A DNA stretch of 64,000 nt. Origin: Alphaproteobacteria bacterium. Lineage in GTDB: Bacteria; Pseudomonadota; Alphaproteobacteria; UBA7879; UBA5542. Both the position numbers and the translations under genes were made by a program. Positions 57,559 to 63,406 of the stretch are shown in pieces. Positions within the stretch are counted from its first letter, which is position 1, and the number at the start of each line of letters is the position of its first letter. Below the pieces are notes generated by a model. That model made no database searches and was not told where the DNA came from. It saw only the letters and a program-made list of their open reading frames with translations. The stretch is from positions 12,617 through 76,616 of the forward strand of contig JBKCVN010000026.1 in assembly GCA_046317875.1 (NCBI GenBank). The letters run 5' to 3'.

Positions 57559-59589
57559 ATGTCAGCGCCTTGTGAAAAAAAAGTTGAAGTTTTATTGCCG
57601 GTTCCTTTTGACCAGACCTTTTCATATGGTGTGCCGAGCGAATTTAAGGTGGGAAAAGGGGATTATGTTCAGGTGTCCTTTGGAAGTCGCACTTTGGTGG
57701 GGGTGCTATGGAGTGAAGCTGTGCCTGGGGAAGAAGAAACCCCAGTTGTACCAGCGTTAGGGCCAGCAAAGAAAGCCTATACCCTGAAACCCTTATTAAA
57801 GAAATTTGATTTTCCGCCTTTGAGCCCCCAATCCATAAAATTTGTAGAGTGGGTGGCCCATTATTATATGGCGCCCCTGGGGATGGTTTTAAAGATGGTG
57901 TTGGCTGAGCCATCAGTTTTTAAAGATATAAAACGTCGCACCCCAAAAGAGATGCCGTTGAAACAATCTGGAGAGCCAGTGGTATTGTCGGCGTCTCAAG
58001 AATCTTGTGTTTCTTTTTTAAAAGAAAAGATGGAGGGGTTCCATACTGTGTTATTAGAGGGGGCCACGGGGTCGGGTAAAACTGAAGTGTACCTGGAACT
58101 GGTGAAAGAGATCTGTGCCAAAGGTCAACAAGCCGTTGTTTTATTACCCGAAATTGGGTTGGGTACCCAGTGGGTGGCGCGGTTTGAAAAGCGGTTTGGG
58201 GAAAAGCCTATATTGTGGCATTCAGACCTGACCCCGGCCCAACGCCGTGATAATTGGGAAAAGATAGCCCAAGGCGAGGCTCGTGTTGTGGTGGGGGCCC
58301 GATCGGCTTTGTTTTTGCCCTATCCAAACCTAGGGCTGGTGGTGGTAGATGAAGAACACGATGGGGGGTACAAACAAGAATCCGGTGTCTTTTACCATGC
58401 CCGTGATATGGCAGTGATTCGGGGGTCTTTGGCCTCGTGTTTGGTGGTGTTGGCCTCGGCCACGCCCTCGTTGGAAACGGTGGTGAATGTGGAGCAGGGG
58501 CGATACGACAAATGCCATCTGGACCAACGATATGGGGAAGCTGGGTTTGCACACGTTACCCTGATAGATCGCCGTGCCAAGGAAGGAAATCTGGTGCCCG
58601 GCAGCCGTTGGATTTCAAAACCCCTCTATGTGGCCATACAAGAAACCTTGGCCCAGAAGGATCAGGTTTTATTGTTTTTGAACCGTCGTGGCTATGCACC
58701 CATGCTGTTGTGTAGTGCCTGTGGCGAGCGAACCACCTGTAAACAATGTGATGCGTGGTTGGTGCATCATAAAACCCAAAATAAGTTACAATGCCACCAT
58801 TGTGGCTATACGGAACGACCCCGAACGGTGTGTAAGGGGTGTGGAGAAGAAAATACACTCATTCCCTGTGGGCCGGGGGTGGAACGGGTGATGGAAGAAG
58901 TAACGGCCTTATTCCCCGACGCCCGCACCTTGATGATGACCAGCGATACCATGACTACCCTGAAACAATCGGAAGAGATGATTGGCAAGATCGAAAAAAA
59001 ACAGGTGGATATTATTGTGGGGACCCAAGTTATGGCCAAGGGGCACCACTTTCCTGATTTAACTTTGGTGGGGGTTATTGATGGGGATTTGGGGCTGGGG
59101 GGCAATGATTTACGCCTGGTAGAGCGCACTTATCAGTTGTTGCACCAAGTCTCGGGCCGATCGGGCCGGGCGCAGAAAAAAGGGCGGGTGATGATTCAGT
59201 CGCACATGGGGGACCATCCCGTGATGCAGGCTTTAATGGTGCAGGACCCCTCGGGTTTTTTGGCGCTGGAAAAAGAAAGCCGGCAAGTGTTTGGCTTTCC
59301 CCCCTATGGACGGTTGGCCGCGGTGATTTTATCGGGACGTCAAAGCCATCAGGTGGAGGCTGCGGCCCGCCAAATGGCAGCCTGTATTCCCGTGATAAAA
59401 GAGATTGAAGTGTTGGGACCGGTGCCGGCCGCCATGAGCCGGTTGAAGGGCCAATATCGGTGGCGGTTTTTGGTAAAAAGTGAGCGTGGGATTAAGATAC
59501 AATCCTTCCTAAAGAAATGGGTGGAAACCGCCCAGATTCCCACCCACATTCGATTACAGATTGATATGGATCCTTATAACTTTTATTAG
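57559..59589 (+). CDS. priA: Primosomal protein N' (PriA helicase)
   Basis: Walker A GATGSGKTEVY, DEEH box, and a Cys4 zinc-binding region (CSACG...CKQCD...CHHCG...CKGCG). Confidence 0.9.
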   Translation: MSAPCEKKVEVLLPVPFDQTFSYGVPSEFKVGKGDYVQVSFGSRTLVGVLWSEAVPGEEETPVVPALGPAKKAYTLKPLLKKFDFPPLSPQSIKFVEWVAHYYMAPLGMVLKMVLAEPSVFKDIKRRTPKEMPLKQSGEPVVLSASQESCVSFLKEKMEGFHTVLLEGATGSGKTEVYLELVKEICAKGQQAVVLLPEIGLGTQWVARFEKRFGEKPILWHSDLTPAQRRDNWEKIAQGEARVVVGARSALFLPYPNLGLVVVDEEHDGGYKQESGVFYHARDMAVIRGSLASCLVVLASATPSLETVVNVEQGRYDKCHLDQRYGEAGFAHVTLIDRRAKEGNLVPGSRWISKPLYVAIQETLAQKDQVLLFLNRRGYAPMLLCSACGERTTCKQCDAWLVHHKTQNKLQCHHCGYTERPRTVCKGCGEENTLIPCGPGVERVMEEVTALFPDARTLMMTSDTMTTLKQSEEMIGKIEKKQVDIIVGTQVMAKGHHFPDLTLVGVIDGDLGLGGNDLRLVERTYQLLHQVSGRSGRAQKKGRVMIQSHMGDHPVMQALMVQDPSGFLALEKESRQVFGFPPYGRLAAVILSGRQSHQVEAAARQMAACIPVIKEIEVLGPVPAAMSRLKGQYRWRFLVKSERGIKIQSFLKKWVETAQIPTHIRLQIDMDPYNFY

Positions 59590-60767
59590 GGTTTGGCCTC
59601 GGCTGCGGTTGCGGCGGCAGGTTCGGGACGGGCCATGACCTTGTTAATTTTCTCCACCAGTTCGGGGGTGAGGGTTTGGAATACATTCAAGGTAAAATGT
59701 TCTTCTTCCCCAGAAAGAACATTCTTGCCACGGATATTACTAGAATAAGACATCAGTCCAAATAGAGAAAATTTATCATCTTCTTTTGTAAATACGGGGC
59801 AACCACTGGTACCACCCACACAGGGACCGAAAAGTTTTTTCTCTTCATCGGATAGTGTATGAAAAGCTAGGCTTGATTCTTTTTTAAAAGACTCATTGTC
59901 GCTAGGGTTTAATTTTTCAAAACATCCAAATGCTTTGGGCTTTACGGGTACTGTTCTTAGTGTTTGTACGAAAACCTGGGGCCGAAAATGGGCACACACG
60001 CTGTCTCGAGTCTGGGTTACCAGGGAAGGAAGCCTATGATCGGGGTGCTCAAATATTTTTGGCAGAGGGGCTCTGTCCATAAATGTTGTTCCATTCATGG
60101 ATTTTTGTCCATCAGCAAAACACCACAAACCTTGGGAGGCGATTCCATAAACATTAACGGTGGGGGGATCGATGGGGGTGGCAGAAAGGGTAATGGGTGC
60201 AATATTTGGAAGGGGGTTTTCTACCTTTAACAAAAGAATATCATGAAGTGTGTTAATAGTATGTTTCCCATTTCTTATGATGAAATCATGGGTGCTTAAA
60301 TTTTGCCGAAAGCTTTTTAAAAGCCCATTCTCTTTTCCATCACTGAATAGTGGGGGGATATGCTTTTCACTTATTGTGACTTTTGAGAATTGATAACGAT
60401 TCGTGCAGTGGTATAATGTTTTATCTTTTTTGGCTTTGGTAATATCCATGTTGCTATTAGTGAGATCAATAGGAATGGTGCTAGGGGAAGGGCTGACCCA
60501 AACGGATGTGTCAGCATCTAATATATGGGTATGATGACAGGAGGTGAGAATATAGTGGGCATTTAAGGCAACGCCTGACCCCATGGAAAGGTCTTGCTCT
60601 CCTTTTTTGTAAGAGACGACCGTCATTATGTTCCCGGCGGGGAAGGTTGGGTGGCTTGCGATGAAAGCTTTTGAGGCTTCATTTGCCTCGAAGGGGTCCT
60701 CAAAAGCCCCAAATCCAGATATAAAAGAACATAGGGTCAGTAGAAAAACTTTTTTTAAGTGCATCAT
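59586..60767 (-). CDS. Secreted trypsin-like (S1/chymotrypsin-fold) serine protease, paralog 1
   Basis: Signal peptide MMHLKKVFLLTLCSFISGFGA; His box LTSCHH; Asp in HDILLLKV; catalytic Ser box GGTSGCPVF. Its stop overlaps the priA stop. Confidence 0.7.
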   Translation of the reverse strand: MMHLKKVFLLTLCSFISGFGAFEDPFEANEASKAFIASHPTFPAGNIMTVVSYKKGEQDLSMGSGVALNAHYILTSCHHTHILDADTSVWVSPSPSTIPIDLTNSNMDITKAKKDKTLYHCTNRYQFSKVTISEKHIPPLFSDGKENGLLKSFRQNLSTHDFIIRNGKHTINTLHDILLLKVENPLPNIAPITLSATPIDPPTVNVYGIASQGLWCFADGQKSMNGTTFMDRAPLPKIFEHPDHRLPSLVTQTRDSVCAHFRPQVFVQTLRTVPVKPKAFGCFEKLNPSDNESFKKESSLAFHTLSDEEKKLFGPCVGGTSGCPVFTKEDDKFSLFGLMSYSSNIRGKNVLSGEEEHFTLNVFQTLTPELVEKINKVMARPEPAAATAAEAKP

Positions 60768-60819
60768 GATTCTTTCGTAATGAAATAAATGCCTTATCTT
60801 ATAACAAGTTTTTTTACTT

Positions 60820-62533: not shown

Positions 62534-62536
62534 ATC

Positions 62537-63406
62537 TTATTCCCCAAAGATTATTTGGTTGATTCTTTTTACCAGCTCCTCAGGAAAAGTTTGGACTATA
62601 TTAACATAAAATTGAGTATCATCAATCATTAGGCTCTTTGTTCCCCTAATGAGTCCATACAAATAAAATTCTTTTTTTTCATTTAAGGCAAATACAGGCC
62701 CTCCACTTGTGCCACCTGTAAAGAGTCCGAATAGGGGCATATCTTCAGGAGATATATTGTGATAAATTAAGCTTTCTTGGGGTTTAAAAGTCTCATCATC
62801 CTCTTCTTTAAATCCTTCAAACAATCCAACAGCCAAAGGTCTCTGGGGAAGAGGAGTCACAGTTTGAGTAAATAGGTGGTGTATAAATAGATCCTCTTCT
62901 TCTCCTTTAAATGAAAAGAAGGTGCCGCCTTTTTCGGGTGAGGAAAGCGGAGAGAGAGGTTTTTTACTATGAATATTTATACACCCATCCCGAGATCTTT
63001 CCCCATTAGCAAAATTCCAAGAACTTTTTGTTCCTATTCCATAAATAGTTTTTTTTGGCTCATGGGATGTTGTTTGGAAAGGAAGATTGGTTAAGGGTAA
63101 AAAAGGGCGATTAAGTCTCAGCAAGACTACATCGATATCATTACCTTCTTTTCCTTTGGATATATCTAGGGCAAGAAAATTTATAACTTGAGACATAAAA
63201 GATTCATCATCAGCCGATAGGGAGCCGGTGCACGAGGAGCTGTTTGCGACTATTCCATTAAAACTAATTCGTTCGACGCAAGAAAAAAAATCAGGATTTT
63301 TCTTTGCCTCTTCCTCATCTAATTTATCCCCTTTAACGGGAACCCACCCCCAACCGTTAGCATATATGTTGGCCAAAGGATTCAAGATGTGTTTGAAATG
63401 ATGCAT
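62537..63406 (-). CDS. Divergent trypsin-like protease paralog 3 (no signal peptide in the called ORF; catalytic His not evident)
   Basis: Ser box GGTSGGPVF, an Asp region DIDVVLLRL, and a C-terminal ...NIVQTFPEELVKRINQII homologous to paralogs 1 and 2. Where LTSCHH would be, the sequence reads VANSSSC. Confidence 0.55.
   Translation of the reverse strand: MHHFKHILNPLANIYANGWGWVPVKGDKLDEEEAKKNPDFFSCVERISFNGIVANSSSCTGSLSADDESFMSQVINFLALDISKGKEGNDIDVVLLRLNRPFLPLTNLPFQTTSHEPKKTIYGIGTKSSWNFANGERSRDGCINIHSKKPLSPLSSPEKGGTFFSFKGEEEDLFIHHLFTQTVTPLPQRPLAVGLFEGFKEEDDETFKPQESLIYHNISPEDMPLFGLFTGGTSGGPVFALNEKKEFYLYGLIRGTKSLMIDDTQFYVNIVQTFPEELVKRINQIIFGE

Follow-up and report, generated by a model that had tools for sequence, protein, structure and literature searches.

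Tandem arrays of secreted S1 protease paralogs are known from the spl operon of Staphylococcus aureus (SplA-F), and flexible genomic hot spots between core genes and homology-facilitated illegitimate recombination are likewise known phenomena. The stretch analysed here (the window) comprises 64,000 nucleotides (nt), or 64 kb, of contig JBKCVN010000026.1 from an uncultured alphaproteobacterium related to the Holosporaceae. Downstream of priA, its minus strand contained one intact copy (P1) and three broken copies (P2, P3 and X) of a putative secreted serine protease gene, together with a second copy of the priA 3' end (the priA tail). Comparison with relatives suggested that the second priA tail is a recombination scar of exchange between strains and not simply a local duplicate, with a rough probability of 0.72 for the whole best explanation.

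Compared with the spl operon, the copies in the window are mostly pseudogenes and the paralogs are far more diverged (~30% identity), and the array carries a core-gene fragment and is wedged between core genes, not on a recognised island. Like flexible hot spots, the locus has conserved flanks (priA on one side, an unnamed gene and pepA on the other) around a cargo of 0 to 3+ genes. Unlike them, no integrase, transposase or tRNA adjoins the protease array, and an origin from a mobile element was rejected since the sole nearby integrase-family gene is xerD-like and syntenic in all relatives. Like homology-facilitated illegitimate recombination, it combines one homologous repeat, two non-homologous joins and a segment of discordantly low divergence. 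The locus exemplifies well a familiar phenomenon, a flexible hot spot where a family of secreted proteins undergoes birth-and-death, and nothing in it overturns current understanding.

Comparison of the proteins with V8 or glutamyl-endopeptidase type S1 proteases (MEROPS S1B; PDB 1qy6, 1p3e and Esp 6q12) showed only 14-16% identity. The window family differs from these in ~150 extra residues spread over several insertions, an N-terminal helix (AFEDP...FP) after the signal peptide, a Ser motif of the form GG(T/M)SG(C/G)P, and scores below the Pfam and NCBIfam cutoffs. It differs from HtrA/DegP (S1C) in having no PDZ domain, in its other architecture and in being strain-variable rather than conserved housekeeping.

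The second priA tail and probable exchange between strains

The features of the locus are as follows, with lengths in amino acids (aa), base pairs (bp) or nt; ORF stands for open reading frame and HMM for hidden Markov model.

57559-59589, plus strand: intact priA (primosomal protein N') of 676 aa with the complete set of PriA Pfam domains, 95% aa identity to the priA of relative L006
59364-59589, plus strand: priA tail copy 1, within the functional gene (allele ...WVETAQIP...PYNFY), direct repeat D1
59586-60767, minus strand: P1, sole intact paralog, 393 aa; signal peptide 1-21, His78 (LTSCHH), Asp176 (DILLLK), Ser321 (GGTSGCP)
60706-60789 and 61992-62073, minus strand: 5' module (ribosome-binding region and signal-peptide codons) common to P1 and P2, 84 nt at 87% nt identity
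60820-62053, minus strand: P2, frameshifted paralog, otherwise a 405-aa ORF with His, Asp and Ser; ~30% identity to every other member
61852-61883: perfect 16-nt tandem duplication in the sequence, two copies of GGGGTCAGTCACATAA, sole lesion of P2
62141-62305, minus strand: X, C-terminal remnant of a fourth paralog, ~55 codons; family HMM positions 326-374, E 2e-7
62308-62533, plus strand: priA tail copy 2, a fragment (allele ...WVKISQIP...PYSFY); PriA_C E 2e-16
62537-63406, minus strand: P3, 5'-truncated paralog of 'PB' type, 289 aa; ungapped 97.5% match to L006, where the gene is full length (383 aa)
63402/63403: breakpoint; 97.5% identity to L006 on the left, short similarity patches only on the right
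63557-64000, plus strand, running off the window: 5' part of the unnamed neighbour gene, with signal peptide and outside any Pfam family; in all relatives the variable interval ends at this gene

The two priA tails were 226 nt each, with 13 mismatches and no gaps (94.2% identity, self-BLAST E 3e-98), and their products differed by exactly 4 aa (E>K, T>I, A>S and N>S). Each tail ended in TAG next to the stop of a convergent protease gene, with a 2-nt overlap at P1 and a 3-nt spacing at P3. The 2,944 bp between the tails (P1, P2 and the X remnant) are an indel between strains with 226-bp direct repeats on either side. An earlier reading of the window from its letters (the sequence-only reading) had described a duplicated priA 3' end with four amino-acid changes and a convergent stop-to-stop junction kept in both copies; self-BLAST reproduced the former, with the bounds refined to 59364-59589 and 62308-62533, and the latter was confirmed. 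The same reading had described three tandem, co-oriented minus-strand paralogs, which were recovered with the fourth remnant, X, added, and a protease C-terminal fragment joined to the priA copy, which corresponds to X.

The contigs of relatives, likewise metagenome assemblies, were picked by PriA search and compared as a graded series. The number of protease copies in each was as follows, with the identity of its priA to that of the window.

L011 (69%): no copy
L009/L010 (70%): no copy
L008 (75%): no copy
P0032 genome (82%): no copy
L002 (85%): two copies, in the order PB, priA fragment, P1, priA
L001 and L007 (87%), two Logan contigs of one run: one copy, P1 type
L006 (95%): one copy, PB type
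The window: three copies plus the remnant

In all relatives, priA was followed sooner or later by an unnamed gene of ~390-530 aa with a signal peptide and then by pepA, holC, secG and pyrG. The flanks downstream of priA are therefore conserved while the number of proteases varies from 0 to 2 in the relatives, and the proposal of a family that expands and decays at this locus held up against this synteny (0, 1 or 2 copies against three and a remnant in the window). The priA fragment of L002 was ~100 nt long, and a short contig, L003, repeated the start of the PB-fragment-P1 order. The contigs L001 and L007 (run SRR33465394) both ended at the P1/priA junction and overlapped by exactly 30 nt (k-1), which means that the assembly graph branches at that junction, as it would with a repeated priA tail or strain heterogeneity there.

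The evidence for exchange came from the comparison with L006. Positions 9803-10897 of L006, which hold its real priA tail and most of its protease, matched window positions 62308-63402 at 97.5% without a gap. The background identity of the two genomes was 91.0% in glyQS, 91.7-92.0% further on and 94.2% across tal plus priA, and the fragment with P3 was the most similar segment of all. Synonymous divergence (pS) between the window and L006 was 0.035 in P3 and 0.248 in tal, while the ratio of nonsynonymous to synonymous divergence (pN/pS) was 0.70 in P3 and 0.05 in tal. A gene fragment and a truncated gene cannot out-conserve housekeeping genes by selection, and the ancestor that this segment shares with L006 must therefore be much more recent than that of the genome around it, which calls for exchange between the lineages. 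The tails themselves gave a matching picture. Tail copy 1 was 94.2% identical to L006, the same as the genome background, and tail copy 2 was 98.2% identical; L006 uses the copy-2 allele as its own real priA tail, agreeing with it at 11 of the 13 positions that separate the window tails.

The sequence-only reading had attributed the array to unequal or homologous recombination. Recombination stood, and local duplication alone did not, since the fragment with P3 is 97.5% identical to L006 against a background of 91-94%. The equal ages expected of a tandem duplication by unequal crossing-over were not found either, the tails being 94% identical in nt and P1 and P3 28% identical in aa. A vertical model, in which L006 deleted P1, P2 and X by a crossover between the tails, was rejected because the fragment with P3 should then be as diverged as tal and priA, while its synonymous divergence is sevenfold lower.

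Two histories are compatible with exchange. The favoured one, on mechanistic grounds, is that the window lineage had the order tail-P1-P2-X-tail-PB and that the ancestor of L006 acquired tail-PB homologously; the tail would have served as the left anchor, and the acquired tail-PB would have replaced that ancestor's own cargo. The other, which also fits, has an L006-like strain as donor of a 1.1-kb patch that entered the window lineage by two illegitimate joins. Two points weigh against too firm a reading of exchange: six genomes are too few to tell in which order and in which direction recombination took place, and every sequence used comes from a metagenome assembly.

A purely local history, in which tandem duplication by unequal crossing-over made the second tail and the paralogs and subsequent gene conversion preserved the likeness of the tails as the bodies diverged, is improbable. 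It would account for the direct repeats that flank the extra genes and for the priA fragment of L002, each fragment resembling the priA of its own genome. The P1 and PB types were each present in both sub-clades (window/L006 and L002/L007), which makes an old duplication likely, so that older duplication with differential loss would also be part of the history. Such a history is hard to reconcile with paralogs ~30% identical beside tails 94% identical, and conversion from the resident priA cannot give a fragment and P3 at 97.5% (pS 0.035) against a background of 91-94% (pS 0.25). Moreover, the positions at which the fragment and the resident tail disagree are those at which L006 disagrees with that tail (11 of 13).

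We consider it very improbable that the reads of an L006-like strain were stitched into the assembly, making a false fragment and a falsely truncated P3. The source is a metagenome-assembled genome (MAG), the patch resembles another strain more than the flanking sequence does, and the graph branches at the P1/priA junction in another sample, as seen with L001 and L007. Against this, the junctions 62307/62308 and 63402/63403 hold no shared sequence on which a k-mer assembler could jump, and the two tails differ at 13 sites and so are not a collapsed repeat. The order protease, priA fragment, protease, priA was also found in L002, a separate ENA assembly, and an L002-like order recurred in another sample on L003, which ends before priA.

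Decay and turnover of the protease copies

The copies in the window are in different states of decay. P2 was split into ORFs of 65 and 347 aa, and deleting one copy of the 16-nt repeat restored the uninterrupted 405-aa ORF; the inactivation of P2 that had been proposed thus traces to a single perfect tandem duplication. X is cut off directly behind the Ser-motif region and abuts priA tail copy 2. It was recovered with a family HMM built without it, in a six-frame search of the 64-kb window that gave no protease copies beyond P1, P2, X and P3, and it matched the C-terminus of the P1 of L002 at a pairwise E of 1.5e-6. A simple tandem model in which X is the duplicated C-terminus of P3 was rejected, as X is of the P1/P2 type (H-TLNV(F/Y)) and what adjoins its stop is the upstream region of P2 and not a priA tail.

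Alignment with the full-length L006 counterpart (383 aa, with a signal peptide and an LTANH His motif) showed that P3 lacks ~94 N-terminal residues, among them the signal peptide and the opening strands of barrel 1. The match to L006 ends at 63402, directly 5' of the catalytic-His-equivalent codon of P3. P3 keeps the His, Asp and Ser codons, the His equivalent being ORF residue 3. The sequence-only reading was thus right that P3 lacks a signal peptide and wrong that it lacks the catalytic His, and VANSSSC, which it had placed at the His motif, sits further downstream. On this alignment, P3 is truncated at the breakpoint rather than mutated at the His. P1 would be the only functional copy in this genome and presumably gives an exported, catalytically competent protease.

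The gene ends were more similar than the gene bodies. Paralogs within one genome were ~30-39% identical overall with near-identical ends, and sliding codon identity between P1 and P2 was 92% in nt over the first ~20 codons and 40-50% in the bodies. The near-identical signal peptides described earlier for these two genes lie in the common 84-nt module. At the other end, L002 contained a 173-nt block duplicated at 92%, made of the last ~75 nt of a protease and ~100 nt of priA tail. The PB genes of L006 (10032-11310) and L002 (8402-9752) were 84% identical in nt over the upstream region and first 69 codons, their bodies barely aligned (20-50% aa), and a sharp mosaic boundary lay just upstream of the His motif. 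The P1 orthologs were uniformly 60-69% identical between genomes.

Conserved ends with variable bodies would be the expected remains of recombination-mediated cassette turnover; diversifying selection on the protease bodies, whose synonymous sites are saturated, would be an alternative. The best account of the interval from priA to the unnamed gene, before pepA, is a strain-variable accessory locus filled with cassettes of this small, lineage-restricted protease family. Homologous recombination, with occasional illegitimate joins, would let strains gain, lose and exchange these cassettes, and its likely substrates are the conserved gene ends: the 5' module with the signal peptide, the C-terminal helix and the priA tail. 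In the window, P2 appears to have been knocked out very recently by the 16-nt duplication, P3 probably lost its 5' third at a recombination junction, and X would survive as the last ~55 codons of its gene.

A stronger proposal, which we consider unlikely, is that the priA-pepA interval serves as a cassette-exchange locus for a protist-associated, Holosporaceae-related lineage, whose strains would trade hypervariable protease bodies there. The swap ends would be the 5' modules (promoter and signal peptide) and the 3' modules (C-terminal helix and priA tail with its terminator), and the neighbouring hypervariable secreted protein would belong to the same system. If true, such exchange would diversify exported proteases against host or competitor proteins, like polymorphic effector or antigen-variation loci. 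A promoter scan gave counts at the level of shuffled sequence.

A divergent, putatively exported S1-like family

The family is treated as a divergent exported S1-like serine protease, with activity and export predicted from fold and motifs. The AlphaFold2 model of P1, built on a six-sequence alignment, had a mean local confidence (pLDDT) of 72 and a predicted template-modelling score (pTM) of 0.77, and showed the two-beta-barrel chymotrypsin fold of clan PA / S1, with the C-terminal helix typical of such proteases at its end. Foldseek returned 230 PDB matches for this model at E<=1e-3, and all of the 50 best (50/50) were chymotrypsin-fold proteases or protease-like. The residues His78, Asp176 and Ser321 (P1 numbering), together with G319, G322 and P324, were invariant in 15 members that are 20-62% identical to P1, and the triad stands in the order His, Asp, Ser within S1-type motifs. 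A HMMER profile search of PDB sequences gave weak matches, nearly all to S1 proteases, aligned at LT(A/S)AH and G(D/M)SGGP.

Curated profiles gave less. P1 scored 17.7 bits with Pfam Trypsin_2, below the cutoff of 27.6, P2 and P3 gave no match, and no member reached the cutoff of a curated S1 profile (Trypsin PF00089 or Trypsin_2 PF13365). Weak Trypsin_2 matches were found in 9 of 15 relatives (E<=0.1, best E 1.3e-5), while the NCBIfam search of the family gave no match. Because the Trypsin_2 score is below threshold, the S1 assignment rests on fold and motifs; what speaks against it is that, with no Pfam or NCBIfam cutoff reached, its basis is a medium-confidence model from a six-sequence alignment. 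The S1-type protease proposed by the sequence-only reading therefore stood for the fold, the triad motifs and the N-terminal signal peptide and fell short for Trypsin_2 membership, and the alignment of the paralogs bore out the triad (H78/D176/S321 invariant in the 15 members) and not the His loss claimed for P3. Its statement that the paralogs are not HtrA/DegP proteases agreed with the Pfam scan, which found no PDZ domain at E<=1. That the proteins are non-catalytic binding modules of protease fold (pseudo-proteases) and not enzymes is most unlikely, since the invariance of His, Asp, Ser and G-x-S-G-x-P in 15 very divergent members would be unexpected once catalysis was lost.

Full-length members began with a basic and then hydrophobic, signal-peptide-like stretch, followed by the conserved AFEDP...FP helix. 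The N-terminus of P1, MMHLKK-VFLLTLCSFISGFG-AFEDP, was read by eye from the sequence; its pattern is conserved in the family, and residues 1-23 had a pLDDT below 50. The Cys in the signal region of P1 is not a lipobox Cys, since it is replaced in P0002. P1 and its orthologs also conserve a Cys at 77, just before the catalytic His (TSCHH), and another at 323, two residues past the Ser (SGCP); at the equivalent positions, Ala/Ser and Gly stand in proteins of the PB and P2 types. A disulfide or redox switch near the active site is possible.

The family is rare. A search with P1 gave 4 matches among 5.8e9 (5.8 billion) proteins, and the family profile gave 19 matches at E<=1e-3 among 1.84e9 (1.84 billion) representatives; 4 of its eight best matches were sequences of the query alignment itself. 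A word-indexed search with a 15-sequence profile added one further protein only, and a scan of JGI metagenome contigs with the family alignment found no relative. The named members were all annotated as 'hypothetical protein' and came from MAGs of Alphaproteobacteria. Among the 185,579 GTDB species genomes, the single match was a Holosporaceae MAG, in agreement with the earlier suggestion of a plausibly host-associated organism. In this MAG the gene lies between lepB and lpxC, away from priA, which means that the family is not tied to priA outside the clade of the window. The member itself (L004, 7485-8723) has 412 aa, with a C-terminal helical extension of ~45 residues. Full-text literature searches and a 2025 review of Holosporales gave no mention of such a protease. 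The family is an undescribed S1-like subfamily, named by no database and restricted to uncultured alphaproteobacteria.

The tail hairpins, the neighbouring genes and the role of the locus

Each priA tail contained a hairpin on the strand of the protease transcript.

59517-59547, minus strand: 13-bp hairpin followed by UUUCUUUAGG, putative P1 terminator found in the terminator scan, lying ~40 nt past the P1 stop, within the last part of the priA coding sequence
62461-62491, minus strand: second 13-bp hairpin with U-tract, ~46 nt past the P3 stop; the changes relative to copy 1 keep 13/13 pairs

Both have the make-up of an intrinsic terminator, a stem-loop followed by a U-tract downstream of a stop on the transcribed strand. 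The 91-nt stretch of copy 1 had a minimum free energy of -27 kcal/mol and a z-score of -2.3 on the minus strand, with z -1.25 on the plus strand; across the hairpin stretches, the protease-sense strand gave -26 to -35 kcal/mol (z -2.3 to -3.2) and the priA-sense strand z -1.2, the hairpin being strand-specific because of G-U pairs. In L002, L006 and L007, each priA tail or fragment adjoining a protease had the hairpin beside it, and the substitutions between the window tails, like those of L002, kept its pairing. Three of the 13 pairs were changed on both sides, with a covariation score reached by 2 of 500 shuffles (9 related sequences only).

The hairpin and U-tract of the priA tail probably end the convergent protease transcript, so that a cassette carrying a priA tail would bring its own terminator. 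Several observations count against this. The hairpin was also found in L009, where no protease follows priA, and was absent in L008 and L011; it lies within coding sequence, where conserved codons (W-V ... P-T-H) hold much of the stem; and the terminator scan of the window gave no excess over shuffled sequence (3 against 5.2). The odds are roughly even that the priA tail acts as protease terminator and that this function is why it moves with the cassette. A core-gene tail doubling as the terminator of a convergent accessory gene would account for the joint movement of fragment and cassette.

The unnamed neighbour gene had no Pfam family in any relative and a signal-peptide-like N-terminus. Its product was 41% identical in aa between the window and L006, though PriA was 95% identical, and 74% identical between L006 and L002; the window product was no closer to L006 than to the most distant relatives. 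Discordance with the core genome spans the whole priA-pepA interval, proteases and neighbour gene alike.

The rest of the 64-kb window was ordinary core genome, with pyruvate dehydrogenase genes, gatAB, spoT, lepB, rnc, era, recO, parC, ntrYX, trkA, hflX, tig, glyQS, the xerD-like gene and tal, together with two Sel1-repeat proteins and several ORFs without a family. The Sel1-repeat proteins adjoin each other on the plus strand (15133-15822 and 16022-17371), the second having nine matched Sel1 stretches in Pfam (E 8e-114); this repeat class is frequent in host-associated bacteria. Sizeable ORFs (186-592 aa) without a Pfam family were found at 1641-5344, 27868-29112, 46436-47887 and 51212-54743. 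The region at 51-54 kb showed indels relative to L006, and positions 3354-4059 and 5133-5917 of L006 had no counterpart, indicating more strain-variable patches. Between the xerD-like gene and tal, 56007-56726 (plus strand) encodes a 239-aa Cys-rich protein with a signal-peptide-like N-terminus, a sub-threshold match to Nodulin_late (E 7e-4) and none in NCBIfam; L006 has just ~100-135 nt at this site, which indicates a strain-specific insertion in syntenic core.

A role in host interaction is a reasonable guess from the signal peptides, the rapid divergence, the strain variability and the affiliation with Holosporaceae. Fast evolution and copy-number variation are properties expected at a host interface, and P1 is a candidate for the treatment of host proteins by the symbiont. 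The locus offers a clean, dated example of accessory-gene turnover in small symbiont genomes, combining what would be a scar derived from part of an essential gene with a knockout in a single step by a 16-nt duplication and an exchanged segment.

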